Assembly (NCBI GenBank): GCA_964491475.1
Contig: CAZBFO010000003.1
Coordinates: 253,293-317,292 of the forward strand
Origin: an uncultured Gammaproteobacteria bacterium
GTDB lineage: Bacteria; Patescibacteriota; Patescibacteriia; SG8-24
Direction of reading: 5' to 3'
Length of the DNA: 64,000 nucleotides
Part shown: positions 7,947 to 43,852 of the stretch, piece after piece
Layout of the letters: each line of letters opens with the position of its first letter
Numbering within the stretch: position 1 is the first letter of the stretch
Made by a program: the position numbers and the translations under genes
Notes under the pieces: generated by a model
Database searches by the model: none
Told to the model about the DNA's origin: nothing
Seen by the model: only the letters and a program-made list of their open reading frames with translations

Positions 7947-7977
7947 TCCGCGCCGGCAAGAAAAAAGCCGGGCCATC

Positions 7978-8006
7978 TTGCCGTTTTCGGCATTTTCGGC
8001 TATATT
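7978..8006 (+). promoter_or_regulatory. candidate sigma70-type promoter for the ITPase gene (-35 TTGCCG, 17-nt spacer, -10 TATATT)
   Basis: TTGCCG at 7978-7983 and TATATT at 8001-8006. The ATG at 8016 would leave a very short leader. Confidence 0.35.
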
Positions 8007-8015
8007 CGCGGCACC

Positions 8016-16666: not shown

Positions 16667-18034
16667 ATGTCTTCATCTTCGTATGACGTGGTCATTGTCG
16701 GCGGCGGCGTCACCGGTACGGCGGCGCTGTACGCGCTTTCGCGATACAGCAACCTCAAGCGCATCCTGATGGTCGAGCGCCGTCACAATGTGGCGCAGGT
16801 CAACAGCAACGTGGTCAACAACAGCCAGACGCTGCACACGGGAGACATCGAGACCAACTACAGTCTCGAAGCTGCCCTCAAGGTGCGAGCTGGCGCCGAC
16901 CTGGTCGCCGGTTTCGTCGACAACTACGCATCCGACATCTGCCTGCGCATCCACAAGATGGTGCTGGGGGTGGGGGAGCAGGAAGTGCAGAGCCTCAAGG
17001 ACCGGCACAGGGAGTTCGCGGAGCAGTTCCCGGACCTTCGTCTGCTAGGCCGCGAGGAGCTGATCGACGTGGAGCCCATGACCGTCGTCGACCGCAAGGC
17101 GGACGAACCGGTTATTGCCCTGCATACTCACCGGGGGTATGCCGTGGACTACCGGCGGCTGTCCGAGTCGTTCGTGCGTATGGCCAAGGGCGGCGAAGCG
17201 CACATCGACTTCTGCTTCCACCTGGCGGTCAGTGGCATCGAGCGGCGGGAAGGCGGCTTCGTCATCAAAATGGGCGGGGACGAGGTCTTTGCTCGGGCTG
17301 TCATTGTCGCTGCCGGATCGCCCAGCCTGATGTTCGCCCAGGCGCTCGGCTACGGAAGGGAATACGCCATCCTGCCGGTGGCCGGGAGCTTCTACCTCTC
17401 CCGCAACCTTCTCAAGGGCAAGGTCTATACCGTTCAGAACCCGAAGATTCCCTTTGCTGCCGTCCACGGCGATCCCGCCGTCTACGACAGCAAGGAGACG
17501 CGGTTCGGCCCCACGGCGCGGCCCATGCCCCTGCTGGAACGTCACCACTACGCCACCTTCATGGAGTTCATGCGCACCGGCACGGCCACCCCACGCGGCA
17601 TCATCGCCGCCTTGCGGGTGGCAGGCGATTGGGACATCGCCAAGTTCCTCCTGCGGAACGCGGCCTACGACCTGCCCTACTTCGGGAAGCGCATCTTCCT
17701 GAAGGACGCCAAGAAGATTGTTCCGTCGCTGACCGCGGCGGACCTCACCCTCGATCGTGGCGCCGGCGGCATCCGCGGGCAACTGGTCGACAAGCGGGTC
17801 GGCAAGATCGCGCGGGGTCACGACAAGATCGTCGGCGAGGGCATCATTTTCATCATGGCGCCGTCGCCCGGGGCGTCGTATTGTCTCGGCAACGCCGTCG
17901 AGGATGCCCGCACGTTGGGCGCGTTCCTCGGTGACAGTTACCGCTTCGACGAAGAGGGGATGCGGCGCGACTTGGCCATCGATTCGGTGGCCGGACACGT
18001 CGGCATCGGCGCGGCGCGGACGATCACTCCGTAG
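16667..18034 (+). CDS. FAD-dependent oxidoreductase of the malate:quinone oxidoreductase (MQO) family
   Basis: GxGxxG dinucleotide fold DVVIVGGGVTGTAAL. ERRHNVAQVNSNVVNNSQTLHTGDIETNY parallels MQO [41 protein letters not shown] Shine-Dalgarno sequence. Shorter than typical MQO. Confidence 0.55.
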   Translation: MSSSSYDVVIVGGGVTGTAALYALSRYSNLKRILMVERRHNVAQVNSNVVNNSQTLHTGDIETNYSLEAALKVRAGADLVAGFVDNYASDICLRIHKMVLGVGEQEVQSLKDRHREFAEQFPDLRLLGREELIDVEPMTVVDRKADEPVIALHTHRGYAVDYRRLSESFVRMAKGGEAHIDFCFHLAVSGIERREGGFVIKMGGDEVFARAVIVAAGSPSLMFAQALGYGREYAILPVAGSFYLSRNLLKGKVYTVQNPKIPFAAVHGDPAVYDSKETRFGPTARPMPLLERHHYATFMEFMRTGTATPRGIIAALRVAGDWDIAKFLLRNAAYDLPYFGKRIFLKDAKKIVPSLTAADLTLDRGAGGIRGQLVDKRVGKIARGHDKIVGEGIIFIMAPSPGASYCLGNAVEDARTLGAFLGDSYRFDEEGMRRDLAIDSVAGHVGIGAARTITP

Positions 18035-18039
18035 CACAC

Positions 18040-18240
18040 GTCGTCCTGTACATCTGCAGGACGATTTTTTATTTTCGCAAATGCTGTATACATTTTTTGT
18101 TCAATTAAATGCTTTAAAACATTGCGATATATTTTAAGCATTAAAAAAAGTATTCAGCATTTTTCCCTGCGGGTGATGGGGGAGTGGCAGACGCGGGCCG
18201 AAACGTTTTGCCGAAACGCAAATGCGTGTTACGCTCCGCG
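18040..18240. other. strongly A+T-rich intergenic island in an otherwise high-G+C region
   Basis: Sequence such as GATTTTTTATTTTCGCAAATGCTGTATACATTTTTTGTTCAATTAAATGCTTTAAAACATTGCGATATATTTTAAGCATTAAAAAAAGTATTCAGCATTTTT. Contains a TGTATACA palindrome and reiterated (A)GCATT motifs. The downstream gene and the giant-gene leader are also lower in G+C. Confidence 0.6.
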
Positions 18241-18241
18241 C

Positions 18242-18841
18242 ATGATTGCTTCACGCGCAAAAATCACGCAGTTTCTCGGCCAGATATTGCCGTCGTTGGC
18301 GGTGCTTACTTTGGCCATTTTTTCCGCTTACGCGATGACGCAGCAATCGTTGCGCATGAGCGCCAATGATCCGCAGATTCAGCTGGCCGAAGACGTGTCT
18401 GCGGCGCTTGGCAGCGGAAAAAATCCCACCGATTTTTTCGGTGATTTGGCCACGGTGAATCTCGATAAAAGCTTGGCGACTTTCGTGGTGATTTACGATG
18501 CGCAAGGGCGCGCGCTGGCCTCGAATGCCAGCTTGTTCGGCTCGATGCCCAAGCTGCCGAAAGGCGTTCTCGATGCGGCCAAAATCGGCGGGCAAAATCG
18601 CGTTACCTGGCAGCCGAAACCGGGCCTGCGTTTTGCCACGGTGGTCGTTTCGTACGTGCAGCCCGGCGGCGATGCCGGCTTCGTGGTGGCGGGAAGGTCG
18701 TTGCGCGAGGTCGAAAAACGGTATGCGAATCTCGCCTGGATTTCTTTCGCGACCTGGGCGGCGGGCGCAGCATTTTTGCTCCTGTTTTTCGGATGGCTGT
18801 ATCCGCTATACATTGCGATGAGGTTGTCAAACAAACTGTGA
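18242..18841 (+). CDS. hypothetical membrane protein (N- and C-terminal transmembrane segments)
   Basis: MIASRAKITQFLGQILPSLAVLTLAIFSAYAM… with a C-terminal WAAGAAFLLLFFGWLYPLY. Visibly lower G+C than flanking genes. Start uncertain. Confidence 0.45.
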   Translation: MIASRAKITQFLGQILPSLAVLTLAIFSAYAMTQQSLRMSANDPQIQLAEDVSAALGSGKNPTDFFGDLATVNLDKSLATFVVIYDAQGRALASNASLFGSMPKLPKGVLDAAKIGGQNRVTWQPKPGLRFATVVVSYVQPGGDAGFVVAGRSLREVEKRYANLAWISFATWAAGAAFLLLFFGWLYPLYIAMRLSNKL

Positions 18842-18955
18842 ACTGATTGAGGATAACTGTGCGTGGCTGTCAGCGCGAATGAAAGACGCGCTGATTTTTT
18901 GAGCGAAACGAGCATAATAAAATCAAGCATTTTACGGAGTAATCCACATCACCTT

Positions 18956-18985
18956 TTGGAGGTGGAAGGGGTCTTGCTCTATAAT
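18956..18985 (+). promoter_or_regulatory. candidate promoter of the giant surface-protein gene (-35 TTGGAG, 18-nt spacer, -10 TATAAT)
   Basis: TTGGAG at 18956-18961 and TATAAT at 18980-18985, about 30 nt upstream of the ATG at 19016. Confidence 0.35.
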
Positions 18986-19015
18986 AGGCGTGTACTCATT
19001 TTTCGCGCCAAGTTC

Positions 19016-22000
19016 ATGCACTTTTGGCGGAACATTTTCCGAAAGCTGCTGTCGCTTGCGATAGGCGTCAGTTTTGTGTTTTTCGGTTTGGCGTCGGCGG
19101 CGAATGCGGCTGTCGGCGTGCCGAAGATTTTGAGCCACCAGGGTCGTCTCCTGGACGCCTCGCAGAACTTGCTCGGCGGTGCGGGCACGAACTACTGTTT
19201 CCGGTTCTCGCTGTACGACGACGCCGCCGTCGGCGGTCCTGACGTCCAGCTGTGGCCGGCCGGTGCGCCGTCGACCATGACGGTCAACGTCAAGAACGGC
19301 GTCTACAACGTCGGCGTCGGTGACGTGGCCGCCGGCGGCGACCTGCTCGACTACGACTTCCAGTCCGGCGATGCCGCCTACCTGAACATCGAGGTGGCCA
19401 ACAGCGTCGCCGGTTCGTGCGTCGGCGTGATCTCGTTCGAGAACCTTTCGCCTCGCCAGCGCGTCATGTCCGCAGGCTACGCCATCAACTCCGACACCGT
19501 CGACGGTTTCCATGCCAAGCAGTCAGCTGACGGCAACTTCATCCCGGCCCTGACCTCCGGCAACCTCATTCTGGGCGCCACCAATCCGCAGATCAACTCC
19601 ACCGGTGCCAACGCGCTGGTCCTCCAGGGCGGCGCCGCGACTGGCGACGTCCAGTTCTTCTCGTCACTGAACAAGCTGACCTCGGCCGGCGACCTGACCG
19701 TGGCCGGTACGGTGACCAACGCCGGCGTGATCATCAACGGCGCGACCACCGACATCAAGACGGGAGCAAACGAGGACTTGGCTCTCGACGCCTCGGGCAC
19801 GGGCAACATCGTCTTCGTGGGCGTGGACTGCTCCGGTTACGCCAACGGCGGCAAGCTGACCACCAACGCTTCGGGCGTGGTCACTTGCGCCAACGACGAC
19901 AGCACGTCTGGCGGCGGCACGGTTACCAGCATCGATGGCAGCGGCGGCACCACCGGTCTTACGTTTAGCGGCGGTCCGGTGACCACTTCGGGCACGCTGA
20001 CGTTGGGCGGCACGCTGGGTGCGGCCAACGGCGGTACCGGTCTGACCTCTTTCACCGTCGGTGACATCCTTTACGCTTCCGGTCCCACGACCTTCTCCAA
20101 GCTTGGCATCGGCTCTGCCGGCCAGGTGTTGAAGGTGGCAGGCGGCATTCCGACCTGGGGTACGGACAACAACACTACTTATACGGCGGGTACCGGCATC
20201 TCCATCAGCCTCGGCAATGTCATCTCGAATACTGGCGTGGTTTCGGAAGCGGACACCTTGGCGACGGTCACCGGCCGCGGCGCGACCACTTCTACGGCTT
20301 CTTCCTTCAACGGCGGCGCTTCGGTGCGCGGTCTGACGGTCGACTCCGCGACCGTCACCAACGATAAGATTTTGGTCAGCATCACCACCGTCGGCGGCGC
20401 CTCTTTCAACGGCACCATTACCAACGCCGACCTTACCGCCGCTCGTACCTACACGCTGCCCGACGTCACCGGCACCTTTATCGTTACGGGATCGGCTGCA
20501 GGCGGCGATTTGACCGGCACCTATCCGAATCCGACCATCGCAGCAGATGCCGTCGCTCTCGGTACCGACACCACGGGCAACTATGTGGCGACCGTTTCGG
20601 GCGGAGGTCCCATTTCCGTGAGCGGTACGGGTGAAGGCGCGGCTGTAACGGTTTCCTGTCCGACCTGTCTGGTTACGGGCGGTTCGCTTTGGACGCTTGC
20701 GGCCTCGGCCGGTTCCGATTCGACCATCTCGCAGGGCGACACCGCGACCTTCGCTGCGGGTTCCAGCAAGGTGACCACGACGAACGACGGCGCCGGCACC
20801 GTCTCTATCGACGTGGCCGAGGCCAATTTGAACTTGAACAACATCGGCGGCAGCCTCGACCTCTCCACCCAGACCACCGGCACCATCAGCCTGACCACCC
20901 AGGTGACCGGCGTCCTGCCTATCGCCAATGGCGGCACCAACGGCTCGTCGTTCACCACCAACACGCTGACGTACTTCGACGGCACGTCGATCGTTTCTAC
21001 CGGCATCAACCCGTCGAGCGTGGTGACCACCACTAACGTCAGCTCCAATGCCGTCACCTCGGTGACCGCGGGCAATGGCCTCACGGGCGGCGGCGGACCG
21101 GGCGCGATCACCGTCCATGTCGGCGCGGGCAACGGCATCGCCGTGGCAGCCAACGACGTCTCGGTTGCCGTCACTTCCAGCGGGACCACCGCCACGACCT
21201 CGTCGAACTCCGGCATCGAGTCCACCTCCACGGGCATCCGCCTGCTGGGCGGCTGCACTGGCGGTGAGATTCTGAAGTGGAACTCCGGCACGAGCACTTG
21301 GGACTGCTCTGCGGATTCGACTGCCGGTACGCTGACCGCACGCGAAACTGACGGCTCGCCGTCACTGGCAGCCACTACTATAGAGTTTGGCCCCACCAGC
21401 AGCTCCGATGATGAATTCGTCGTCACCAATGAGGGTTCCGGCGTCGCCCGCGTGCGCACGGGCACCAAGATCCCGCGCACTGACGTCGCGGCGACAGTCA
21501 CCGGCGGCTGGACTTTCAATTCGGCAACCTCCTTTACCTCGACCGTCGACGCTTCCGGTGCGACCTTCCTCGGCGCCACGCCCCTCATCTTTGAGGGCGG
21601 CACTGTCGACGCGTTCAAGACCGCCTTCAACATCACCGATCCGACTGCATCCAACACCATCACTTTCCCTGACGCTTCCGGTACGGTGGCCGTTTCGGCT
21701 TCGGGTCCGATTTCTTTGAGCGCGGCAGGCAACATCTCCTGTCCGACCTGTCTGGTGAGCGGCAGTTCGTTGTGGACCTCTGCCGGTGACGTCGGTTCGT
21801 TTGCGGTTTCGCAGGGCGGCACCGCCACGTTCGCAGGCGGCCTCGGCATCGACACTTCCGCAGCCGGTTCTACGGTGACCATTGCGGTAGATGAATCCGC
21901 CCTCGACCTCGCCAACATCGGCGGGTTCCTGGACCTTTCGACCCAGACCACCGGCACCATCAGCCTGACCACCCAGGTCTCGGGCGTCCTCCCGATCGCC

Positions 22001-25000
22001 AACGGCGGCACCAACAACACTTCCTTCACTGCCAACCGGCTGACGTACTTCGACGGCACCAAGATCGCCTCGACCTCGATCGATCCGGCCAACGTGCTCG
22101 TCTCTGGCGGCAGCCTGTACACTTTGGCCGCCACCAGCGGTTCGAACTCCACCATCAGCCAGGGAGGCACGGCGACCATCGCTGCGGGTACCGACATCAG
22201 CACGACGGGCAACGGCAGCGGCACCGTCACGATTGCTGACACCTCGACGCTCTCGAGCGTAACCGGCCGCGGTGCCTCGACCTCGACCGCCGTCTCCCTG
22301 AACGGCGGCGCCACGGTCCGCGGCCTGACGGTCGACTCGGCCACGGCCACCGAGGACCGCATCCTCACGAGCATCGCCGCCACCGGAGCGGCCCGCTTCG
22401 ACGGCACGATCACCAACGCCGACCTGACCGCAGCCCGCACCTGGACGCTCCCGAACGCCAGCGGCACCTTCGCGGTGTCGGCTTCCGCGCCCATCTCGCT
22501 CTCGGCGGCGGGCAACGTCTCCTGCCCGACCTGCCTCACTTCCGGCAGCACCGTGTTCACCCTCGCCGCCACCTCCGGCAGCAGCCAGGCGCTCGCCTCC
22601 GGCGACACCATCACCATCGCGGCCGGCTCCAACGTTACCACCACGGCCGGAGCGACCGACACCGTCACCGTCGCGGTCGTCAGCAACCCCACCTTCACCA
22701 CGGTGACCGCCACCGACGTCGACAACGCCGCCACGTTGAACCTCGGGGCCAGCTCGACCACCGTCAACATCGGCAATCCCTCTTCCACCACCAACATTTA
22801 CGGCACGCTCTCGCTCGCCGGCGACTTCGCGCCGTCGGTCGACAACACCTACGAGCTCGGCACCGCCAGTCTCCGCTGGAAGGACGTCTGGGTCGGACCC
22901 GGCTCGTACAAGCTGTCCTCGACCGCCGGAAACTCCGGTTCGGGCACGGACTACACGCTTGGCAGCCTGTCGTTCAGCGGTACCGACTTGGTGCTCAAGT
23001 CTGACGTCGTCGGTTTGGGTACGCAAGGCTCGCTCCGTCTCACCACGGCCAGCAACTACGGTGTCGTCGTCGGTCCTTCTGGCGAGGTGTCGGTCGGTTT
23101 CGGCGGCAGCAACCTCGGTGCGGGCATCGTCCACACCGACGCTTTCGGCGTGCTCTCAAGCTCGGCGCTCGACCTTACCGCTGAAGTTGGCACCAGCGTC
23201 CTGCCGATCGCCAACGGCGGCACCAACAACACTTCCTTCACGGCCAACCGCCTGACCTACTTTGACGGCACCAAGATCGCTTCGACGACCATTAATCCGG
23301 CCAACGTCTTGCTCTCCGGCGGAAGCCTGTTCACTGCTGCAGCGACATCGGGCTCCAATTCGACCATCTTGCAGGGCGGCACGCTGACGCTCGCCGCAGG
23401 CACCGACATCAGCACGACGGGCAGCGGCTCGGGTACGGTCACGGTCGCCGACACCTCGACCCTGGCCAGCGTCACCGGCCGCGGCGCGACCACTTCCACT
23501 GCCATTACCCTGACTGGCGGCGCGACCATTTCGGGCGGCGTCGACCTTAGCAGCGCCATCTTGGCCGGCACCAACCCATTGGTGTTCGATGGCACTACCG
23601 TCGATGCCAACACGACCGCGCTGTCGTTCGTGGATCCGACCGGCACCAACGTCATCACCTTCCCTGACGCCTCCGGTTACGTGCTGCTTTCGGGCGGAAA
23701 TCTGTTCACGCTGGCCGGTTCCTCTGGCAGCAACTCCACCATCAATCAGGGCGGCACCGCGACCGTCGCCGGTGCTTCCGGCCGCGTTTCCGCCACCGGT
23801 AACGGCAGCGGCACCGTTACCATCGACGTCATCGAGTCCGGTTTGAGCTTGGCCAGCATGGGCGGGTCGCTCGATCTGACCACCCAGGTCTCGGGCGTCC
23901 TGCCGATTGCCAACGGCGGCAGCAACAGCTCCGGTCCGTTCGTCACCGGTGAGCTGCTTTCCTTTGACGGGTCATCGTTCGTCTCCTCGGGCATTTCTGC
24001 GGCCAGCGTCGTCACCTCCGGCACGGCGGCCGGCGGCGACCTTACGGGCTTCTACCCGAACCCGACGGTTGCCGCGAATGCCGTCGCTCTCGGCACGGAC
24101 ACCACCGGTAACTACGTCGCCACCGTTGCCGGTTCCGGCCCGATTTCCGTCGCCGGCTCCGGCGGTGAGAGCGCCAACGTGACCGTTTCCTGCCCGACCT
24201 GCGTCACCACCTCCAGCAGCAACGTTTGGACGCTGTCCGGATCCACCGGTACTTCGACGGCCATCGGCTACGGCGACACCGCCACGGTCGCGGCCGGCTC
24301 CTCCAAGGTCTCTTCGGTCGGCGACGGTGCCGGATCGGTAGCCATCGACGTCGTCGAGGCCAACTTGAACCTCAACAACATCGGCGGCTCGCTGGACCTC
24401 TCCACCCAGACCACCGGCCAGATCGACCTGACCACCCAGGTTACCGGTGTGCTTCCGATTGCCAACGGCGGTACCAATAACACCGGTTTCACCACCAACC
24501 GCCTGGTGTACTTCGACGGTTCGCAGCTGACCTCTACCTCCATCAATCCCACCGATGTCCTTCTGTCCGGCGGCAGCCTCTTCTCAACGGCCGGCAATTC
24601 TGGCACCTCGACCATCTCGCAGGGCGGCACGCTCTCGATTCTCGGCGGCACCGACGTCACTACCACCGACGACGGTTCCGGCAACATCACCGTCGATGAC
24701 ACCTCGACCCTGGCTAGCGTCACCGGCCGCGGCTCGTCGACTTCGACCGCCGTCTCCCTGAACGGCGGCGCCTCGGTCCGCGGACTGACGGTCGACGACG
24801 TCACCGCCACGCACGACCGCATCCTGACCAGCATCGCCGCCACCGGAGCGGTCCGCTTCGACGGCACGATCACCAACGCCGACCTGACCGCAGCCCGCAC
24901 CTGGACGCTCCCGAACGCCAGCGGCACCTTCGCGGTGTCCGCCAGCGCTCCCATCTCGCTCTCGGCAGCCGGCAACATTTCCTGCAGCACCTGTCTCGTC

Positions 25001-28000
25001 TCCGGCGGCAGCCTCTTCAGCAGCCTCGGCGACACCGGTACTTCGTCCATTTCGCAGGGCGGCTCGCTGAAGATCGCCGGCGGCAGCAACATCACCACGT
25101 CCGACAACGGTGCTGGCATCATCACCGTGGCCACGTCGGCGAATCCGAGCTTCACCTCGGTCACTTCCGACACCTTCGACAGCTCCAGCACCACCCTGAA
25201 CCTCGGCCCGACCAACGCCACCACCATCAACATCGGCAACGGCGGATCGACCACCAACATCTTCGGCACGTTGGTGCTCGACGGCGGCTTCAACCCCGCA
25301 GTCGACAACACCTATGACCTCGGTTCCCCGGCGCTTCGCTGGAAGACCGTGTACGTCGGTCCCGGCTCGTATCATCTGACCTCGACCACCGGCACTTCCG
25401 GTTCCGGTGCCAACTACACCGACGGCTCGCTGGCGTTCGGAGGAACCAACCTGAAGCTCGCTACCGCCGCGGTCGGCACCGGCGCGATCGGTTCGTTGCA
25501 GCTCACGACCGGCAGCAACGCCGGGGTGAACGTCGACTCCACGGGCAAGGTCGGCGTCGGTACCGCCTCTCCGACTGCTCTCCTGTCCGTCGGTTCCGCC
25601 TCCGACTTCACCGTTGACAACTCCGGTAACGTCACCGCCTCTGGCGACGCGGCAGTGAACGGCGGCAATCTCACCACGACCGCCTCGACCGGCAATCTTT
25701 TCAGCACCAATGCGACCACCGTCAACCTCGGTGACGCCGCCGATACCGTGAACCTCGCGGGCGGCAGCGGCTCGACCGGTTGTACCATCGATCTCAACGG
25801 TAACTTCAGCTGCACGGGTTCGGTTACCGGCGGCGGCACCGTCGGCGGTTCCGGAGCGCAGTACCACACTGCGGTCTGGGCATCCGCCAACACCCTTGCC
25901 GACGTAGGTCCCGGCACTGCGGGTCAGCTGCTGATTTCCCAGGGCGGTTCGGCCTATCCGGCCTACACCACGGTATCCGGCGACGCGACCATTAACGGAT
26001 CCGGCGTGCTCACCATTTCCGCGAATGCCGTCGCCCTCGGCACCGACACCACCGGCAACTACGTTGCCAGCGTGTCCGCCACCGGGCCGATCTCGATTTC
26101 TGGCACGCCCGGCGAAGGTTGGACTCCCAACGTCTCCTGCCCGACCTGCGTGACCACCAGCAGCACCGGCGTCTGGACCCTGTCCGGCTCCACCGGCTCC
26201 AGCACCTCCATCAACTACGGCGACACCGCCACCGTCGCGGCCGGCTCCTCCAAGGTCTCCGCCGTCGGTAGCGGCACCGGATCGGTGGCCATCGACGTCG
26301 TCGAGGCCAACCTGAACCTCAACAGCATCGGCGGCTCGCTCGACCTGTCGACGCAGACCACCGGTTTCCTTAGCCTCACCACCCAGGTCACCGGCGTCCT
26401 GCCGATCGCCAACGGCGGCACCAACAACACTTCCTTCACGACCAACCGGCTGACGTACTTCGACGGCACCAAGATCGCGTCTACCGCCATCGATCCTTCG
26501 ACGGTGCTGGTTTCCGGCAGCGCGCTGTTCAACTCTGCCGGCGACACGGGCACGTCGAGCGTTTCGCAGGGCGATACGCTTACCTTTGTGGGCGGCACCG
26601 ACGTTTCGACTGCGGATGACGGCGCGCGCAACGTCACCATCAACGACATCTCGACGCTCGCCACGGTCACCGGCCGCGGCGCGACCACTTCTACGGCCGT
26701 CACGTTGACCGGCGGCGCCACCGTCCGCGGCCTGACGGTCGACTCCTCGACGGCCACCAACGACAAGATACTCACCTCCATCACCACTGTCGGCGCAGCG
26801 TCGTTCAATGGCACGATCACCAACGCCGACCTGACCGCCGCCCGCACCTGGACGCTCCCGAACGCGAGCGGCACCTTCGCGGTGTCGGCCTCGGCGCCGA
26901 TCTCGCTCTCGGCCGCGGGCAACATCAGCTGTTCGACCTGCGTCACGACCGGCGGATCGCTGTTCACGCTGGCGGGCTCGACGGGCAGCAACTCGACCAT
27001 CAGCCAGGGCGGCACGGCCACGATCGCCGCGGGCTCGAGCAAGGTGACCGCCGCGGGCAACGGCACGGGCACCGTCTCGATTGACGTCGTCGAGGCCAAC
27101 CTGAACCTCAACAACATCGGCGGCTCGCTCGACCTTTCTACCCAGACCACCGGCACCATCGACCTGACCACCCAGGTCTCGGGCGTCCTCCCGATCGCCA
27201 ACGGCGGCTCCAATGCCGACGGCACCGGCTACACCGCCAACCGCCTCCTGGCCTTCGATGGCACCAGCTTCGTGACCACTTCCATCAACCCCGCCAACGT
27301 CCTGCTCTCCGGCGGCAGCCTCTTCACCAGCCAGGGCGACAGCGGCAGCTCGACCATCAGCCAGGGCGGCACGCTCAAGGTGGCCGGCGGTACTGACGTC
27401 ACGACCTCCGACAGCGGTTCCGGCGTGATTACGGTCAACGACTCTTCGACCCTGGCCAGCGTGACCGGCCGCGGCGCGTCGACCTCCACCGCCTCGTCCT
27501 TCAACGGCGGCGCCACAGTCCGCGGCCTGACGGTCGACTCCGCCACGGCCACCGAGGACCGCATCCTGACAAGCGTCGCCGCCACCGGCGCCGCCCGCTT
27601 CGACGGCACCATCACCAACGCCGACCTGACCGCAGCCCGCACCTGGACGCTCCCGAACGCCAGCGGCACCTTCGCGGTGTCGGCCAGCGCTCCCATTGCG
27701 CTCTCGGCCGCCGGCAACATCAGCTGTTCGACCTGCGTCACCACCGCCACCACGCTCTTCAACTTCGCAGGTACCTCCGGCTCGGCCTCGACCATCACCT
27801 CGGGCGGCACCGCCACCGTCACCGCCGGCACCAACATGACCACCACCGGCAGCGGCGGCTCGGGTTCCGGCGCCGTCACCGTCGCGGTCGTCGCCAACCC
27901 CAGTTTCACCTCGGTCACCTCCGACACCTTCGACAGCTCTTCGACCACCCTGAACCTCGGCCCGACCAACGCCACCACCATCAACATCGGCAACGGCGGA

Positions 28001-31000
28001 TCGACCACCAACATCTACGGCACCCTCTCTCTTGCCGGCGACTTCAGCCCGTCGGTCGACAATACCTACGAGCTCGGCGCCGAGCAGCTCCGCTGGAAGG
28101 ACGTCTGGGTCGGACCCGGCTCGTACAAGCTGTCCTCGACCACCGGCACCTCCGGCTCCGGCACGGACTACACCCTCGGCAGCCTGTCGTTCGGCGGCAC
28201 CAACATGGTCCTGAAGACCGAGGCGGTCGGCGCGGGCGTAACCGGCAGCGTCCAGGTCACCACCGGTTCCAACGTCGGCCTGAACGTCGACTCGACCGGC
28301 AAGGTCGGCATCAACACCGCTTCTCCGTCGGCCGCCTTCGCTGTCGGCACTGGTTCGCCGTTCACCGTCGACAACTCCGGCAACGTCATCACTTCGGGCA
28401 ACGCCACCGTCAACGGTGACACCGCGCTCGGCGACGCCGCAACCGACGGCATCACCCTAACCGGCGAGGTTCGCGGCGCCAGCCCGATTCGCTTCGAGGG
28501 CGCCACCAACGACAACACCTACACGACTATCGCCGTGGTCGATCCGACCGCCTCGCGCACCATCAATCTGCCCAATGCCAGCGGCACCTTCGCCGTGTCG
28601 GCCAGCGCCCCGTTGTCTTTGAGCGCGGCCGGCAACCTGACCTGCAGCACCTGCGTCACCACCAGCAGCACCGGCGTCTGGACCCTGGCCGGCTCCACCG
28701 GCTCCAGCACCTCCATCAACTACGGCGACACCGCCACCGTCGCGGCCGGATCCTCCAAGGTCTCCGCGGTCGGCAGCGGCTCCGGATCGGTGGCCATCGA
28801 CGTCGTCGAGGCCAACCTGAACCTCGCCAACATCGGCGGCTCGCTTGACCTGACCACCCAGGTCACGGGTGTGCTTCCGATCGCCAACGGCGGCACCAAC
28901 AACACTTCCTTCACGACCAACCGGCTGACGTACTTCGACGGCACGTCCATCGCTTCGACGACCATCAATCCCTCGAACGTCCTGCTTTCCGGCGGCAGCC
29001 TCTTCACCGCCGCAGCCACGTCGGGCTCGAGCTCGACCATCTCGCAGGGCGGCACGCTGACCCTTGCGGCTGGCACCGACATTTCCACGACCGGCAACGG
29101 CTCCGGAACCGTCACTGTCGCCGACACCTCGACGCTTGCCACGGTCACCGGCCGCGGCGCAACCACTTCCACTGCGGTCTCGCTGACCGGAGGCGCCACC
29201 GTTCGCGGCGAGACTATCGACACCGCCACCGCAACTGACGACCTTATCGCGGTTTCCGTGACGGCCGGCGGCGCGGCCCGCTTTACCGGCACCGTCACCA
29301 ACGCCGACCTGACCGCCGCCCGCACCTGGACGCTCCCGAACGCCAGCGGCACCTTCGCGGTGTCGGCCAGCGCGCCGATCACCTTGAGTGCGGCAGGCGA
29401 TATCGGCTGTTCGACCTGCCTTACCACCGGCAGCAACATCTTCACGCTGGCCGGCACCTCTGGCTCGAATCAGACGCTTACCAACGGCGACACCATCACC
29501 ATCGCTGCGGGTACCAACATCACCACCACCGGCGGCGCCACCGACACCGTCACCGTGGCCACCGTCGCCAACCCGACCTTCAGCACCTCGGTAACCACGC
29601 CCTCGGTCGATAACGGCGCCTCTGGCATTACCATCGGTTCTGGATCGGGTACCACGACCATCACTTCGTCCAACTGGGGCGTGAGCTCGGCCGGCGCGAT
29701 TTCCGGCCTGACGGGCATCTCCAGCTCCGGCACCGTCACCCTCACCGGCCTGACCGCCAGCCGCTTCGTGACCACCGACGGCTCCTCGAACCTCACGACC
29801 TCGCAGAACTCCGCCGCCCTCTCCGCGACCCTCACCGACGAGACCGGCTCCGGCGCGGCCGTCTTCGGCACCAGCCCGGCCATCACCACCAGCCTGACCA
29901 CCGGATCGGCCAGCTTCGACCTCCTGAACGCCACGGCCACCACCGTCAACTTCGCCGGCGCGGCCACCACGCTGGCCATCGGCGCCGCGACCGGCACCGC
30001 CACCGTCAACAACGCCACGGTGACCCTCGCCAACGCCACCACCGTCAACGTCAACGGCGCCTCGCCGAGCATCGTCACCAGCTCGGCCGGCACCGCCAGC
30101 GTCTTCAACACCAACGCCACCACGCTCAACATGGGCGGCGCGGCCACCACCGTGGCGATCGGCGTCGCGGGAGCCTCCGGCACCATGAACCTCATGGGCG
30201 GCTCCGGCTCCACCGGCTGCACCGTCGACGGCTCCAACGGCAACTTGGCCTGCAGCGGCACAATCACCAGCACCGCCACCTCCGGCAACATCGGCTGGTG
30301 GAACCGCACCGGCACGACCCTTTCGCCCAGCAACTCGGGCGACAACGTCACCACCAGCGGCAACGTCAGCACGACCGGCTCCGGCACCATCACCTCGGCA
30401 GCCTTGCTGACCGCCTCCAACGGCTTCACCCAGACCACCGGCGCAACCAACGTCACCGGCACCTCCGGCTCGATCGCGCTGACCGGCTTCGGTTCCACCT
30501 CCATCACTTCCACCAACAGCGGCAGCAACGCCTTCAGCCTGTCCGACTCCGCGCTCACGACCGCCTCGCTGGCTTCGCTCACGTCGACCAACAACTCGGC
30601 CGCGAATACCGCCTGGTCCGCGGACGTCTTCAACGTCACCAACGCGCAGGGCACCACGGCCGTCAGCACCGGCAGCATCGCCGGCGTCGACGTCCAGTTC
30701 ACGCAAGGCACGACCGTTGCCGGCAACAACGACACCGCGCTGCGCGTGAACCTGGCGCAGAACAATTCGTCGTCGACTGACGCGACCTTGAGCTCGCTGG
30801 TCTCGCTGGCCAACAACGACACCGCCACCGGCAACCAGATCACCGTCACCGACGGCCTGAACATCGCCGGGGCCAACGTCACCAACGGCATCAACCTGTC
30901 GGGCACCTTCGGCACCAACCTGATCACCAGCTCCAACTTCAGCGTGACCCAGGCCGGCCTCGTCACCACCGCCGACGACATCGCCGTGAACGGCGCCGAC

Positions 31001-34000
31001 GTCACCACCACTTCCTCCGGCACCGCCACGCTCTTCAACACCAACGCCACCACGCTGAACGCGGGCGGCGCGGCCACCACGGTCAATGTCGGCATCGCCG
31101 GAGCCAGCGGCACCATGGCCCTGATGGGCGGCTCCGGCTCCACCGGCTGCACCGTCGACGGATCGAACGGCAACTTCACTTGCTCCGGCACAATCACCAG
31201 CACCGCCACCTCCGGCAACCTCGGCTGGTGGAACCGCACGGGCACGACGCTCTCGCCGGTCAACGCCGGCGACAACGTCACCACCACAGGCAACGTCAGC
31301 ACGACCAGCTCGGGCACTATCACTTCGGCCGGTACTTTGACGGCCAGCAACGGCTTCACCCAGACCACCGGAGCCACCAGCGTCACCGGCACCTCCGGCT
31401 CGATCGCGCTCACCGGCTTCGGTTCCACCGCGATCACCAGCACCACCGCCACGGGCAACGTCTTCAACCTTGCTGACACCAGCCTGACCACCGGCACCGG
31501 CTTCCGCTCGGCCACCACCAGCACCGCCACCACCAATACGGCCTTCTCGGCCAACGTCTTCGCGGCCACCTTCGCCCAGGCGACGGCAGCCAACACCTCC
31601 GGCGTCAACGGCCTCGACGTGCAGTGGACCCAGAACCCGACCGTCGCCGGCAACACCAATGAGTCGATGCTGCGCCTGCAGAACCAGCTCGTGAACAGCA
31701 CCACCGACACCAGCGTGGCCAACGGCCTGCTGATCGACAACGCAGACACTTCGGCCACCGGTTCGACGGCCATCACCAACGCCATCAACATCTCCCAGTC
31801 CGGCGGCCTCGCCACGACCGCGGCGTACACCAACTACCTGAACGCCACCAACTGGTCGGTGACCAGCGCGGGCGCGGAGACGCTCGCCTCCGACCTGGCG
31901 GTGAACGGCGGCAACCTCACCTCGTCCGCCACCACCTTCAACCTGCTCAACTCGGGCGTCACCACGCTGAACGAGGGCGGCGCTGCCACCACCGTGGCGA
32001 TCGGCATCGCGGGAGCTTCCGGCACCATGGACCTGATGGGCGGCAGCGGCAGCACCGGCTGCACGATCAACGGCTCCAACGGCAACCTGACCTGCAGCGG
32101 CACCATTTCCGGCACTTTCGCCGTGAAGTGGAGCGACCTGCAGAACCCGACGGCCAACGAGTCGCTGGCGATGGGCGCCAACACTTCGACCTTCACCTAT
32201 AACGCCACCACCGGCGCCGGCGTCAACCTCTACACCCTGGTCGACACCGCCTCGAACACCGGCACCGGCTACATCCTGTCGGCAGAAACGGCGGCCAGCT
32301 CGGCGGCCAAGCCGTTCCGGGTCGTCGCTCGCGCCAACACCATCATCGACACCACCTCCACCGGAGGCGTGACCATCGGTAACGCCACCGCAGCGCAGGC
32401 CGTGACCGTCGACGCGGGCACTGCCACGCTCAACTTCGGCAACTCCAACAACGCCAGGGCCATCAACATCGGCACCGGCACCGCCGTGGACACCATCCAC
32501 ATCGGCGACGGCGGCACGGGCGCCGACGTCATCACCATCGGTTCGAACGTCGCCGGACAGACTTTGGCGCTCGACGCCGGCACCGGCGCCGCGGCCATCA
32601 CCATCGGCAACAGCGCCACCGCCCATGGCATCCAGATCGGCACCGGCGCTGCCGTCCAGACCATCTCGATCGGCTCGACCAATTCGACCTCGGCCACCAC
32701 CGTCAGCGCCGGATCGGGCAACTTGGCCCTGACCGCCACCTCCGGCGGCGTCAACCTGTCGACGACCACCAGCGGCACCATCAACTTCCAGCCGCTCGGC
32801 TCGGGCACCACCGGCATCGTTCAGGTGGGCGCGGGCGGCGCAGGTTCCACCACGCCTGACCTCCTGGCTGTCGACGTGAAGTCGAACGCCGGCGACCCGG
32901 CCACCACCCAGAACGGCTACATGTACTACAACGGCAGCACCAACAAGTTCCGCTGCTACGAGAACGGCGCCTGGAAGGACTGCGACACCAACACCGGTTC
33001 CGCGCCGCGCCTCGACCAGATCATCGCCGCGACCGCCGCCAACACCATCGCCAACGCCAACTTCGCCCAGACTTGGAACTGGGGCACGCTCACGACCCAG
33101 ACCGCCATGACCTTCGGCGGCGGCTCGGCCATGACCACGGGCTCGGTGTTCAACTTGAGCGGCGGCACCTACGTTCACACCGGCACTGTCACCGAGACCG
33201 GCAGCTTGGCCACCTTGAACGTGACCGACTCTTCCTCAAATACGGGCGGCAACCCGGTGACCAACGGCCTGCTGATCACGCCGACGTTCAGCACTACTGC
33301 CAGCGCCGGCACCAAGGTGCTTAACGGCCTCAAGGTCGATCCGACCCTGACCTCCTGCGGTACCACCGCTGGCACCTGCACCTTGAGCGACATCGTGGCC
33401 AACACGCCGGCGCTGACGCAGACCACCACCAACACGATGAACATCAACGCCCTGCAGCTGCCGACGGCGGGCGCGCTGGTGCAGAACACGGCGGCCGGCA
33501 CCATCAACTGGAACGGCCTGACCATGCAGATGCCGAACATCACCCAGACCACCGGCACGGTCACCTCGACCGGCGTGAAGGTCACTGGCGGCACGGTCAC
33601 CTCCGGCACCTCGTATGCCTTCGTTTCGGACAGCAACGCCGGCAACGTAGGCGTCGGCACGCTTACGCCGACGCGCACTTTGGACGTGAACGGCAACATG
33701 GGCGGCAGTTCCGTCACTAGCGCCCAATCGCTGACCAGCACGCAGACGGTGACCGTCTCGACCAAGGCGGTGGCCTTCTACCTGTCCGAAGACTCCACCA
33801 CCACGAACTCCGACGTCGACATCACCTTCAATCTGACCGGCCTGCCCGACGTGGACGGCACCTACGCCTTCTTCTACCTGTCGGCCAAGAAGGGCGTGAC
33901 CACCAACGCGCACCTCACCACCGTCGATGTCAGCATCAACGGCAACGCCATCACCAACGCCCTGGTGAAGAGCTCCACCGCGACCGTCGCCTCGACCATC

Positions 34001-35733: not shown

Positions 35734-36162
35734 ATGCTGAAACGTATGAAATCGGTCCTCAAGTACCTCGGGGCGAGCGCGGTCATCCTTCTCCTTGCCG
35801 GTTCGCTGGCCGAAAATGCGCTGCAGTACGGGCAAATCAAGGCGCTCAAGTCCGATCCGGCCTACACGGCCTCGAAGGAAACCGCGTCGCTCATCGCCGC
35901 TGTCGGCCGCCTGATGGTCCTGCCGGACGAGACGCCGACCATCGCCACGGTCGACGACATGGACAAGCTGAAGGGTCAGGCGTTCTTCGCCAACGCCAAG
36001 AAAGGGGACAAGGTGCTGATCTTCACGAACGCCAAGAAGGCCGTGCTGTACGACCCCGTAGCCGACAAGATCGTCGAGTCGGCGCCGCTCTCCGCCGCCA
36101 GCGCCCCGGCATCGGATGACTCGACCAAGACGGATACCTCCCAAAAAGACACTTCGCAGTAA
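35734..36162 (+). CDS. hypothetical small secreted/membrane-anchored protein
   Basis: 142 aa, starting about 50 nt after the giant-gene stop. N-terminal signal/anchor MLKRMKSVLKYLGASAVILLLAGSLA. Ends in an acidic, Ser/Thr-rich tail. Confidence 0.5.
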   Translation: MLKRMKSVLKYLGASAVILLLAGSLAENALQYGQIKALKSDPAYTASKETASLIAAVGRLMVLPDETPTIATVDDMDKLKGQAFFANAKKGDKVLIFTNAKKAVLYDPVADKIVESAPLSAASAPASDDSTKTDTSQKDTSQ

Positions 36163-36171
36163 GCAACGCCG

Positions 36172-38691
36172 TTGCATGCCACGACGATGACGACTTGGAA
36201 ACGCGCAATCCGGTTGCTGGGCGGAATCGCGCTTGCCGTCGCAATGACGGCGGGCGCGACGTCCGTTGCGTTTGCCGACAATTACTCCAGCGCCAGCTTC
36301 ACCGTCAGCAACCCGGTCATCGACAACGGCGGGGGATTGTCGTCATCCGCGCACTTCCTGAACTATTCCAGTTTCGGACAGACCCAGTTCGAGGTGGAAT
36401 CCAGTTCCAACTTCATCGACTGCAACGGCTTCCTGTATTTCGAGTCGGCCAGCAAGCCCACGGTGACTTCGCTGACCGCCGGCAACGCCACGGTGACCCT
36501 GGGGTGGGCCACCTCTTTCGGCGTCTGCGGCAACGTCATCACCAAATACAAGATCGGCGTTTCCGGCGCCAGCGGCGGCCCGTACGTCTTCGGCGACGAG
36601 GTCGCCGGCAACGTGCTGACGTTTCCCAAGACCGGCCTCACCAACTGCACGCCCTACTACTTCGTGATCCAGGCGATTTCCGGCACTACGGTGCTGGCGA
36701 CTTCTGCCGAGGTCACCGGTACGCCTACCAATGGCAGCTGCAGCGGAGGGGGCGGAGGAGGGGGCGGTGGCGGTGGCTGCGGCTTGAACTGCGGCGACCA
36801 CATCTGCTGCATCAATTACGAGAACACCGCCTCGTGCCCTTCGGACTGCCCGGCCCCGCCGCCGTCGCCACCGGCTCCGGTGGTTACGCCTCCCGGCCCG
36901 CAGTGCGTGCCGCAATGTTCAAGCGTGTCTTATGACTTGTACATCGTAGACCCCGACGGTACCGAACGTCACAGCGGCACTTCCTGGACGCATGACCGCG
37001 CTATCGACGCTAGCACCGTCGAGCACGCCTTTGAGGACAAGGGCAACGACTTCGACTACAACGACGTCATCGTCGACGTCAACAAGGCCGACTGCCACAC
37101 TTTGTCCGCCAAGGTGGTCAGCATCGACGCCGGCTGGCACCACCAGATCTGGTTCGCGCTGTACTACGACGGCGTCAAGAAGCGCACCGTGATGATTTCG
37201 CCGGACTCTCACCAGGCGGCCGGTTCGTCGCTAGTCATCGACGGCGGCACGCCCGACATGTGCGGCGGCTCCAACGCCCTGACCGTGGTGGTCAGCGGCC
37301 CGGACGGCAAGCCTGAACCCATCCGCGAGGGCGACCTGATCAAGGCCGACCAGGACACCGTCTACTACTACGGCCGTGACGGCAAACGTCACCCTTTCCC
37401 GCATTTCAAGATTTACGACAGCTGGTACGGAGACAAGTTCGCAGCAGTCAGGCATATCGCGCCGGCCGATTTGGCCACGATTCCGGTCGGTCCGAACGTG
37501 CTCTACCGCCCGGGCAGCCGCTTGGTAAAGCTGCTGACCGATCCCAAGGTGTACGCGGTCGCGGCACAAGGCGTCTTGCGCTGGGTCACCACCGGCGACG
37601 TCGCCACCTCGCTGTTCGGCACCAACTGGAAGCGCTTCGTCGAAGACCTGAACGACGCTTTCTTCAACGACTACGTCATCGGCGCGCCCATCAACGCCCC
37701 GGGCGAATACGGCGCCGCGTCGGACTACGCCAAGTACAAGAGCATCGACGACAACCAGAAGCTGCCGACGACCTCGCCGCCGCAGCTGCCGCCGGTCAGC
37801 TCGACGGTGCTGCCTGCCTGCACGGTCGCCTCGCCTTTCGAAAGCATCCTCGGCGTCGGGGTGACCGACCCGCAGGTGCAGACGCTGCAGCAGCTGCTGC
37901 AGTGCCTGGGCTTCTTTCCTGCTGCGGTTACGCCGAACGGCATTTACGGTGCGGCCACCGAATCGGCAGTGAAGGACTTTCAGGACGCCAACGGCCTCAA
38001 CGTGGTCGGTTTCCTCTCCAATGAGACCCGTTCGATGCTGAACCGTTTCGTCCTGCCGCCCAACTCTGAAGTGATTCCCGAGACGCCGGTTCCGGTTCCG
38101 ACGCCGGTTCCCGCGACGCCCGTGGCAGCGGCGCCAACGCCCACCTGCACGGCTTCCTCACCGACGACGCACTCCTTCGGTGCCGGCAGCACGGATTCGC
38201 AGGTGCTTCCTATGCAGCAGCTGCTGCGGTGCCTGGGCTTCTTCCCCAAGACGGTCGCGCCCAACGGCGTGATGGGCCCGACCACCGTGGCCTCGCTCAA
38301 GGCCTTCCAGACGGCCAACGGCCTGACGGCGACAGGCGCTACCAACGATGCCACCAACACCAAGCTCAACAGCTACATTCCGGGGACGCCGACCGGCAAC
38401 ACCACGACCACGGGTTCCGCGTCGAGTTCCGCGCCATCTCCGGCTCCGACGGCCTGCACGGCGTCCGTGACGTTCAACAAGCAGTTGCAGGCCGGGGACG
38501 AGGATCCGCAGGCGCTGGCGTTGCAGCAGCTGCTGCGGTGCCTGGGCTTCTTCCCCAAGACGGTCGCGCCCAACGGCGTGATGGGCCCGACCACCGTGGC
38601 CTCGCTCAAGGCCTTCCAGACGGCAAAGGGCATCTCGGCCACGGGCATCATCGGTCCGCTGACGCAGGCGGCACTGAACGCCTACCGTTAA
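36172..38691 (+). CDS. secreted cell-wall-associated multidomain protein with three C-terminal peptidoglycan-binding (PG_binding_1-like) repeats
   Basis: Signal peptide …LLGGIALAVAMTAGATSVAFA. FN3-like beta region. Poly-Gly/Cys-rich segment CSGGGGGGGGGGGCGLNCGDHICC and a Pro-rich linker. GNDFDYNDVIVDV motif reminiscent of DUF4114. Three repeats of LQQLL(Q/R)CLGFFP…VAPNG.(Y/M)G..T…(V/L)KAFQ.ANGL. Starts 10 nt after the previous stop. Confidence 0.7.
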   Translation: MHATTMTTWKRAIRLLGGIALAVAMTAGATSVAFADNYSSASFTVSNPVIDNGGGLSSSAHFLNYSSFGQTQFEVESSSNFIDCNGFLYFESASKPTVTSLTAGNATVTLGWATSFGVCGNVITKYKIGVSGASGGPYVFGDEVAGNVLTFPKTGLTNCTPYYFVIQAISGTTVLATSAEVTGTPTNGSCSGGGGGGGGGGGCGLNCGDHICCINYENTASCPSDCPAPPPSPPAPVVTPPGPQCVPQCSSVSYDLYIVDPDGTERHSGTSWTHDRAIDASTVEHAFEDKGNDFDYNDVIVDVNKADCHTLSAKVVSIDAGWHHQIWFALYYDGVKKRTVMISPDSHQAAGSSLVIDGGTPDMCGGSNALTVVVSGPDGKPEPIREGDLIKADQDTVYYYGRDGKRHPFPHFKIYDSWYGDKFAAVRHIAPADLATIPVGPNVLYRPGSRLVKLLTDPKVYAVAAQGVLRWVTTGDVATSLFGTNWKRFVEDLNDAFFNDYVIGAPINAPGEYGAASDYAKYKSIDDNQKLPTTSPPQLPPVSSTVLPACTVASPFESILGVGVTDPQVQTLQQLLQCLGFFPAAVTPNGIYGAATESAVKDFQDANGLNVVGFLSNETRSMLNRFVLPPNSEVIPETPVPVPTPVPATPVAAAPTPTCTASSPTTHSFGAGSTDSQVLPMQQLLRCLGFFPKTVAPNGVMGPTTVASLKAFQTANGLTATGATNDATNTKLNSYIPGTPTGNTTTTGSASSSAPSPAPTACTASVTFNKQLQAGDEDPQALALQQLLRCLGFFPKTVAPNGVMGPTTVASLKAFQTAKGISATGIIGPLTQAALNAYR

Positions 38692-38761
38692 AAGCGCGGC
38701 GCTATGCCGGATGGTGCGGACCGTCCGGCATTTGCTATACTTCCCGTGGATAACAGGCCGC

Positions 38762-39493: not shown

Positions 39494-39506
39494 CCTCCAT
39501 TCGCGC

Positions 39507-43763: not shown

Positions 43764-43820
43764 GGGGATGCGGTTAAGAGATTCGTGGTCAGTATAGCAG
43801 TTTTTCCCGATGCCATGGGC

Positions 43821-43848: not shown

Positions 43849-43852
43849 GGTG

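Follow-up and report, generated by a model that had tools for sequence, protein, structure and literature searches.

The DNA tracts that known xenogeneic silencers coat are markedly A+T-rich and longer than the one described here. To our knowledge, no such silencer has been described for Patescibacteria, and we know of little work on the promoters and regulators of the present lineage, probably one of high G+C within this group. Our search of the literature found nothing relevant to the present locus. The window analyzed here is a stretch of 64,000 nucleotides (nt) from contig CAZBFO010000003.1, which belongs to an uncultured bacterium placed among the Patescibacteriota. It contains an A+T-rich island between a gene for an Mqo-like oxidoreductase and a small gene for a two-helix membrane protein, which is followed by a giant gene. 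The island is a thing of a kind already known, an unusually A+T-rich instance of ordinary intergenic architecture. We hold with moderate confidence that it is the lineage-specific, unusually A+T-rich terminator, promoter and operator region of the small gene, and neither a boundary mark nor a control site of the giant gene.

The island was compared with its counterpart at locus L002 in a related genome. The features of the island and the small gene are:

18040-18075, plus strand: intrinsic terminator T1 of the Mqo-like gene, from a terminator scan
18066-18165, no strand: core of the A+T-rich island, 22% G+C
18079-18162, no strand: imperfect palindrome of 84 nt, from a repeat search
18095-18110, plus strand: conserved block 1, TTTTGTTCAATTAAAT, identical to L002 at 16 of 16 positions and ending in TTAAAT
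18105-18110, plus strand: candidate -35 element of the putative promoter P1, TTAAAT, at the end of conserved block 1
18128-18133, plus strand: candidate -10 element of P1, TATATT, which is AATATT in L002 and keeps A2 and T6
18129-18155, plus strand: conserved block 2, ATATTTTAAGCATTAAAAAAAGTATTC, identical to L002 at 27 of 27 positions
18166-18241: leader of normal composition, read from the sequence
18179-18188, plus strand: conserved leader element GGGGAGTGGC, from the alignment with L002
18208-18241, plus strand: candidate promoter P2, read from the sequence as TTGCCG, a 16-nt spacer, TGT-TACGCT and 6 nt to the ATG
18242-18841, plus strand: small gene, 199 residues, two transmembrane helices around a PAS/PDC-like sensor fold
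18870-18900, plus strand: intrinsic terminator T2 of the small gene, 8-bp G+C-rich stem, fold of -16 kcal/mol

The island is the deepest compositional trough of the window. The whole window has a G+C content of 64.2%, and its 100-bp sliding windows have a mean of 0.642 and a standard deviation (sd) of 0.056. The lowest of them, at 18064-18163, has a G+C content of 0.21, about 7.7 sd under the mean, and this trough alone falls below 0.40 across the 64 kb. The runner-up, with 0.40 at 18892, is located in the second intergenic spacer of the same locus, and all remaining values are 0.42 or higher. The initial annotation had reported an A+T-rich stretch of about 200 bp in high-G+C sequence. The stretch is real, but 200 bp overstates its size: the deep trough measures about 100-110 bp and lies within an intergenic region of 207 bp with 42.5% G+C. 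The span 18040-19016 has 51.4% G+C, which is essentially the lowest value in the window at its length of 977 bp. Sliding windows of this length have a mean of 0.641, an sd of 0.028 and a minimum of 0.511 at 18063, and the 21 of 63,024 that lie below the span all overlap it. The next independent low, 0.548, corresponds to the ORF6N gene near 2.2-3.0 kb. The lower-G+C flank described earlier is also present: the small gene has 56.5% G+C and a G+C content at third codon positions (GC3) of 0.68, and the first 90 nt of the giant gene, which encode its signal peptide, have a GC3 of 0.667 that then rises to 0.83 or more. The intergenic region between the small and giant genes has 44.8% G+C. The low-G+C anomaly is thus about 1 kb long: it begins with the island, takes in the small gene and ends with the spacer after it, and does not amount to a 21-kb giant-gene block.

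Two intrinsic terminators bracket the small gene. T1 starts 6 nt past the stop codon of the Mqo-like gene (18032-18034). Its 11-bp stem, in which five pairs are G-C, and its 4-nt loop occupy 18040-18065, and TTTTTTATTTT comes next. Its predicted fold has an energy of -16.5 kcal/mol (z -6.7), and its U-tract forms the left edge of the island. T2 is composed of a stem of UCAGCGCG and CGCGCUGA, a 9-nt loop and a U6 run. L002 carries at the position of T1 a hairpin and U-run of different sequence (-12.5 kcal/mol), and at the position of T2 a different 8-bp G+C-rich hairpin followed by U7 (-16.8 kcal/mol). The terminator structures are kept in position while the sequences of their stems drift. The anatomy of the region, both terminators, the pattern of conservation and the composition statistics are observed directly.

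The palindrome is built of nested inverted repeats. Its outer arms (18079-18098 and 18143-18162) are 20 nt long and 90% complementary, and its inner arms (18105-18118 and 18132-18145) are 14 nt long and 86% complementary. It is predicted to fold as a long hairpin on either strand, with z-scores against shuffles of -3.1 for the plus and -4.4 for the minus strand, and it measures 84 nt in L002 as well. The TGTATACA palindrome and the reiterated GCATT motifs listed in the initial annotation are both there. TGTATACA occurs once in the window, at 18085, and GCATT or its complement AATGC has four copies in the 101-bp core against 0.15 expected, a count reached in none of 20,000 core shuffles. The two copies on the left read AAATGCT and the two on the right read AGCATT; all four lie in the arms of the nested inverted repeats. 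A role of either motif as a conserved binding site was rejected: GCATT is enriched in the window, but L002 retains only one of its four copies and has lost TGTATACA. We read both as probable by-products of the repeats.

The island core is 78% identical to that of L002, and the identity is unevenly distributed. The two conserved blocks are perfect, and the 17 nt between them (18111-18127) are identical at only 6 of 17 positions while their number is the same in both genomes. Third codon positions of the flanking genes are merely 0.57-0.69 identical, so the perfect runs of 16 and 27 nt indicate selection. In this pair of genomes the island appears to be under sequence-specific purifying selection.

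The layout of conserved, variable and conserved segments can be read as the footprint of a promoter, TTAAAT-N17-TATATT, which we call P1. The hexamer regions and the spacer length are kept and the spacer letters are free, as seen in the one relative compared. The -10 hexamer matches TATAAT at five of six positions, A2 and T6 among them, and block 2 begins one base inside it. P1 is a candidate sigma-70-type promoter that would start transcription near 18140. Other intergenic regions of the window contain ordinary TTGACA-N17-TAnnnT promoters, which indicates that the organism uses standard promoter architecture, and the spacing of P1 agrees with theirs.

The leader between the island and the small gene contains a second candidate promoter, P2. 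Its TTGCCG lies at 18208-18213 and its TGT-TACGCT at 18227-18235; L002 has TTGCTC and a 17-nt spacer. TTTTGC and CGTGTTACGCTCCGCGCATG are invariant between the two genomes and the spacer sequence differs, so that the surroundings, TTGCCG ... TGTTACGCT-N6-ATG, repeat the conserved, variable and conserved layout, and CGTGTTACGCTCCGCGC-ATG is invariant as well. An mRNA made from P2 would be leaderless, with its first base in the ATG, which fits the total lack of a Shine-Dalgarno sequence ahead of the small gene. Elsewhere in the window, TTGCCG-N17-TATATT (7947-8015) ends 9 nt before the ATG (8016) of a DUF84/NTPase gene that has no Shine-Dalgarno sequence. The short distance from this -10 box to the ATG supports the plausibility of P2 and suggests that leaderless or near-leaderless mRNAs may occur in this genome beside genes with clear GGAG(G) sites. 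The conserved leader element GGGGAGTGGC can pair with ACGCUCC just 5' of the start codon in a consensus fold, and the pairs are kept in both sequences.

Which segments are promoters, where transcription starts and whether an operator is present are inferred from the letters of the two genomes. We propose that the region is composed of four parts. The first would be the U-tract of the terminator that closes the Mqo-like gene. The second would be the A+T-rich sigma-70-type promoter P1, with a tract of A and T resembling an UP element, TTAAAT, a 17-nt spacer, TATATT and a start at about 18140. The third would be the 84-bp imperfect palindrome around P1; its dyad symmetry suggests an operator, and it is probably the binding site of a symmetric DNA-binding protein, or else a hairpin. 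The fourth would be the leader of about 100 nt with the proximal candidate P2. The small gene would form a self-contained transcription unit closed by T2, and the giant gene would be transcribed separately. The island is tied to the small gene because the giant gene has its own TATAAT, and because six related lineages without the small and giant genes have a spacer of ordinary G+C content, or none. For a lineage of high G+C that probably belongs to the Patescibacteria, the candidate promoters found here are well delimited and footprinted by comparison with L002, and an operator may accompany them.

Several points weigh against this assignment. The -35 hexamer of P1 has just three of six matches to TTGACA at the 17-nt spacing, and a consensus scan of 17800-19300 requiring at least four of six matches per hexamer returned no promoters. 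Hexamers resembling a -10 element arise easily by chance in DNA of 22% G+C. The island was found in one relative only, so the footprint is a single pairwise comparison. Block 2 is conserved to about +15 of P1, which is more than a bare promoter needs, and the palindromic symmetry with its three compensatory end pairs is likewise beyond that need. The -10 hexamer of P2 has only three of six consensus matches. Only one of P1 and P2 can be the sole promoter, and if P2 is the active one, the island lies at -80 to -180, where its function is harder to explain.

Other readings of the island letters were examined and rejected. An 18-codon open reading frame (ORF) runs from an ATG at 18081 to a TAA at 18135 and has a GTG-initiated counterpart with the same stop in L002. 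It was ruled out, as the changes are spread evenly over codon positions with none of the synonymous-only kind, it lacks a ribosome-binding site, and an open frame of such length is not improbable by chance. A reverse-strand promoter was dismissed since manual reading gave no acceptable pair of -35 and -10 elements and there is no gene for it to drive. Resemblance to dif, attC or IHF sites, judged by eye, was discarded because their defining core sequences are absent.

Among the genes of the window, the small one beside the island stands out by its composition. Its GC3 compares with 0.841 +/- 0.039 in the 36 other genes of the window (z -4.1), and its codon fit, measured as a leave-one-out synonymous-codon likelihood on window genes, is 0.40 per codon under expectation (z -8.1), the worst in the window. 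The L002 small gene is low as well, with a GC3 of 0.60 against 0.75-0.90 in its neighbors. The island and the small gene would form a low-G+C cassette of about 0.8 kb that was already present in the common ancestor of the window and L002. The cassette is either an old, incompletely ameliorated acquisition or a segment kept A+T-rich by its regulatory function. A distance tree reveals no donor for the small protein, which it places equidistant from Patescibacteria and Chloroflexota homologs.

The product of the small gene is modeled by AlphaFold2 with a mean predicted local distance difference test score (pLDDT) of 94. In the model, a mixed alpha/beta domain lies between two long transmembrane helices, one N-terminal and one C-terminal. 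Foldseek matches it to the sensor domains of SrrB, CzcS, WalK, CqsR and DcuS (E 6e-4 to 1e-2, 11-18% identity). The protein lacks an output domain and matches no entry of Pfam or NCBIfam, and it is predicted to be a stand-alone extracytoplasmic PAS/PDC-like sensor fold. A public gene call of 221 residues, which extends the protein N-terminally to the in-frame ATG at 18176, was ruled out, since L002 has no start codon there and a 1-nt insertion or deletion breaks the frame.

The small protein has more than 2,700 homologs, of which one is close, the L002 protein P0002 with 75% identity, and the next is 52% identical. The family is about 190 residues long with invariant ANDPQ, WQP and GRSLRE motifs and carries no annotation. 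It is found in Chloroflexota, Patescibacteria, Dormibacterota and some metagenome-assembled genomes labeled as Actinobacteria, and in Chloroflexia a GT2 glycosyltransferase gene is frequently next on the 3' side, often overlapping. We examined 80 genomic loci of the family (L003-L082), mainly from Chloroflexota and Patescibacteria. In none of them does a giant gene follow, and the small genes in them are usually at or above local G+C. The upstream regions of 78 other family members are enriched in k-mers resembling Shine-Dalgarno sequences and TATAAT, and show no enrichment of the island motifs. As a very widespread, unannotated family, it may merit study of its own.

The genes flanking this cassette are:

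16667-18034, plus strand: gene for a flavin adenine dinucleotide (FAD) oxidoreductase, Mqo-like or L-2-hydroxyglutarate-oxidase-like, 455 residues, with Pfam DAO and Mqo matches
18901-19015: spacer with TTGGAG-N18-TATAAT, from the sequence and its alignment with L002
18940-18985, plus strand: promoter region of the giant gene, with TAATCCACA at 18940-18948, TTGGAG at 18956-18961, N18 and TATAAT at 18980-18985
19016-35683, plus strand: giant gene, 5,555 residues, whose ATG opens a typical signal peptide and whose N-terminal homologs are from Patescibacteria only

The gene order in L002 is amino-acid permease, two S41 peptidases, Mqo-like gene, A+T island, small gene and giant-gene homolog, the same in order and orientation as in the window. 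The L002 contig stops 1.6 kb into the giant-gene homolog, so that only the left end of the locus was compared. Its Mqo-like protein is 88% identical to that of the window. Mqo-like homologs with 69-80% identity are present in six further lineages represented by ten loci (L085/86, L104/105, L106, L107/108/112, L109 and L110/111). Where the contig reaches, the gene 3' of the Mqo-like gene differs in each lineage; its product is quinolinate phosphoribosyltransferase (QRPTase), a TrmB-like protein, a CDP-alcohol phosphatidyltransferase or another protein. The small gene and the giant gene are both missing. The L109 contig ends 88 bp past the Mqo-like gene. The 3' spacers, where present, contain ordinary terminators and have a G+C content of 0.46-0.63, whereas L104/105 have no spacer, since the gene that follows overlaps the stop codon of the Mqo-like gene. 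Because the upstream side differs as well, this is scrambled synteny and not a clean empty site. From these comparisons, the arrangement of island, small gene and giant gene appears specific to the clade of the window and L002 and older than their split.

The giant gene is compositionally native. It has 66.4% G+C, a GC3 of 0.877 and a codon fit 0.083 per codon above expectation, and its unusual G+C content at first and second codon positions (GC1 and GC2) reflects a sequence rich in Thr, Gly, Ser and Ala. The spacer in front of it is 56% identical to that of L002 overall, and TAATCCACA, TATAAT and the GTACT that follows are conserved. The giant gene is probably transcribed from this TATAAT promoter of its own. 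The initial annotation had proposed the island as the binding site of a regulator of the giant gene. Such control is unlikely, because a whole gene and the positionally conserved T2 intervene and because the giant gene has its own conserved TATAAT. The giant gene should not be treated as foreign or silenced, as the anomaly belongs to its small neighbor. A start of the giant gene at the GTG at 18863 was rejected: the signal peptide begins at the Met at 19016, the extension would contain the terminator hairpin, and the gene calls in both genomes use the ATG.

Two 9-mers resembling the DnaA box TTATCCACA, each with eight of nine matches, lie in the spacer between the small and giant genes: TTATCCTCA on the minus strand (in 18846-18856), just past the stop codon of the small gene, and TAATCCACA on the plus strand, about 30 nt 5' of the -35 region of the giant gene. 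Both are perfectly kept in L002 within the 56%-identical spacer, and the pair may be a regulator site for the giant gene.

The giant protein has no Pfam domain save a weak H-type lectin match near its C-terminus, and its N-terminal 250 or so residues match only fragmentary proteins of Patescibacteria. In the two genomic contexts of its N-terminal homologs that were examined, no member of the small-gene family is located on the 5' side. In another Patescibacterium (L083), a homolog of the window's 839-residue PG_binding/fn3 protein (36172-38691) is encoded near a homolog of the giant gene. The 839-residue protein and a 1,237-residue protein encoded on the reverse strand (40143-43856) share a domain with NAGPA-annotated proteins that are encoded near the Mqo-like gene in L106 and L109.

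The Mqo-like gene has native composition, with a GC3 of 0.849, and every match of its protein to NCBIfam is under the cutoff. In L104 (9428-11619) and L105 (4772-6963), the gene for an 80%-identical Mqo-like protein overlaps the start of nadC, which encodes quinolinate phosphoribosyltransferase, and follows a gene for a CTP_transf_like-CoaE fusion. This placement hints at a possible function of the Mqo-like enzyme in NAD biosynthesis, in a role like that of L-aspartate oxidase. The window itself carries a cluster of NrtR, nicotinamidase-like and nicotinate phosphoribosyltransferase (NAPRTase) genes at 57.5-63 kb.

The most interesting alternative is that the palindrome is a structured nucleic-acid element and not primarily a promoter, acting as a cis-regulatory RNA, a small RNA, an accessory terminator or insulator, or a DNA cruciform. 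We regard this as unlikely. The nested inverted repeats with their highly complementary arms speak for it, as do the exact length of 84 nt in both genomes, a predicted hairpin whose stability exceeds that of shuffled sequence on either strand of either genome (z -2.4 to -4.4), and a U5 run next to the 3' end in the window; this run, however, is not kept in L002. The outer end of the palindrome has the appearance of covariation, since the three outermost pairs have changed on both sides and still pair, and one U-A pair has become U-G. With two sequences this signal is weak, as about one double change is expected among 20 pairs and the shuffle control gave 74 of 500, and five further one-sided changes make or break pairs. 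The strand is ambiguous too: the outer U-G favors the plus strand, but an inner A-C mismatch would be U-G only on the minus strand. There is no space for a promoter between T1 and the hairpin. Rfam 15 has no match in the window at gathering score, and a search of 17900-19200 gave only matches at chance level (E about 0.9), the one in the island being to a miRNA model with E 0.9.

A bolder version makes the 84-nt palindrome a lineage-specific structured element, either a hairpin RNA or a cruciform-like dock for an undescribed nucleoid or repressor protein, that would gate an acquired gene for an extracytoplasmic sensor without output, located directly 5' of the gene for a surface protein of 5,555 residues. 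We give it no better chance than the general hairpin idea, and perhaps a shade less. If it were true, a functional link would exist between the sensor gene and the giant gene, such as a shared part in the control of envelope glycosylation or adhesion.

We think it improbable that the A+T tract nucleates a nucleoid-associated or xenogeneic-silencing protein which represses an acquired locus that includes the giant gene, although the island has the lowest G+C of the window, adjoins a gene with foreign-looking codon usage, contains recurring A-tracts and T-tracts, and stands in a gene order (Mqo-like, island, small, giant) confined to the clade of the window and L002. With a trough of about 100 bp and a small gene whose G+C content lies only 8 points under the genome average, extended A+T coverage of the silencer type is lacking over the small gene and over the giant gene. 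T2 insulates the giant gene, which has a promoter of its own, from the island, and selection on the island is specific to its sequence, not to mere A+T-richness. No H-NS, Lsr2, MvaT or Rok domain was found among about 45 window proteins scanned by Pfam.

The initial annotation had described the locus as horizontally acquired or silenced, and had asked whether 18.0-39.5 kb is an insertion. An old foreign origin would fit the cassette of about 0.8 kb and does not fit the native giant gene. Likewise, G+C and codon usage across 18.0-39.5 kb single out the small gene, but show the giant gene and the genes at 35734-40073 (GC3 0.77-0.86) to be native, and with a native giant gene the block is not foreign-looking. 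A giant-gene island of this extent was rejected on the grounds of GC3, codon likelihood, the lack of tRNA, integrase and repeats, and the synteny with L002. Neither tRNA nor tmRNA genes are present in the 64 kb, the window genes scanned have no Pfam match to an integrase or transposase, and no direct repeats of at least 12 nt link the proposed edges, the few shared 10-12-mers all being inside coding sequence. It had also been stated that related genomes with the same island as conserved core sequence of unremarkable composition would speak against acquisition. L002 does keep the island as conserved sequence, but the composition is not unremarkable, so half of that description applies.

It is rather less probable still that the island is a relic of a miniature inverted-repeat transposable element (MITE) or of a sequence like the repetitive extragenic palindromes (REP), or a scar from the arrival of the small gene, and that it has little function today. 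It has the look of such a relic in being an intergenic, imperfect palindrome that adjoins the sole strongly atypical gene and is absent 3' of the Mqo-like gene in all more distant relatives. However, it is single-copy: no second copy of the palindrome or island occurs in the window at up to three mismatches or in the other fetched loci, and the exact 24-nt conserved core has no match in JGI metagenomes or IMG/VR. It also lacks target-site duplications and flanking repeats, and perfect blocks of 16 and 27 nt against a neutral background of about 60% argue for current function.

That the island is a replication origin or a DNA-unwinding element is highly improbable: it is an A+T-rich tract within a G+C-rich genome, the cumulative GC skew turns near 19 kb, and the next spacer holds the two conserved DnaA-box-like 9-mers, but the island itself contains no DnaA box at up to one mismatch (five such matches occur in the 64 kb), the window has no dnaA or dnaN gene, and the skew reverses exactly where the giant gene and the large reverse-strand gene at 40143-43856 have their C-rich coding strand.

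Two other segments of the window stand out in their statistics. An ORF6N-domain gene at 2608-2976 (Pfam E 5e-34), between a hibernation-factor gene and secA, has 50% G+C and a GC3 of 0.585. In G+C content this region ranks second from the bottom in the window, and its GC3 looks more foreign than any value in the 18040-19016 locus. A Peptidase_C39-like ORF at 43850-45388 has the second-worst codon fit (z -7.2), a GC1 of 0.73 and a GC3 of 0.75, and overlaps a 275-residue reverse-strand ORF (43853-44680) with better GC3. Its gene model may be wrong, or the segment may be atypical.

The terminator, promoter and operator reading of the island can be set against known systems. Genomic islands resemble the locus in a sharp break of composition at one edge and a lineage-restricted gene order, and differ from it in that the locus has no tRNA gene, integrase or flanking repeats, an atypical part of only about 0.8-1 kb, and a sister genome that shares it. 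REP, MITE and Correia-type repeats are similar as imperfect palindromes of 80-100 bp in spacers with a predicted hairpin. The island, in contrast, is single-copy in all sequence searched, has no target-site duplication, and appears to be under strong purifying selection in its inner part. The targets of H-NS, MvaT, Lsr2 and Rok are, like the island, A+T tracts in a G+C-rich genome beside a gene with atypical codons, but extend over hundreds of bp to kilobases, compared with about 100 bp here. They differ from the island also in that its large neighbor is native, its conservation is specific to sequence, and the window proteins scanned include no silencer.

The small protein bears a resemblance in predicted fold and in its topology of helix, sensor and helix to the PAS/PDC (sCache-like) sensors of WalK, CzcS, SrrB and DcuS, which however have the cytoplasmic transmitter or output domain that it lacks and share only 11-18% identity with it. 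The island is closest to an ordinary unit of terminator, sigma-70 promoter and palindromic operator. It shares with such units a G+C-rich hairpin and U-tract right after a stop codon, a freely diverging spacer of 17 nt between two blocks that are conserved, A/T-rich DNA 5' of the putative -35 element, and dyad symmetry in the core. It differs in its G+C content, 22% against 46-69% at the other promoter regions of the window, in its weak candidate -35 element (three of six matches), and in conservation that extends about 15 nt beyond the putative start.

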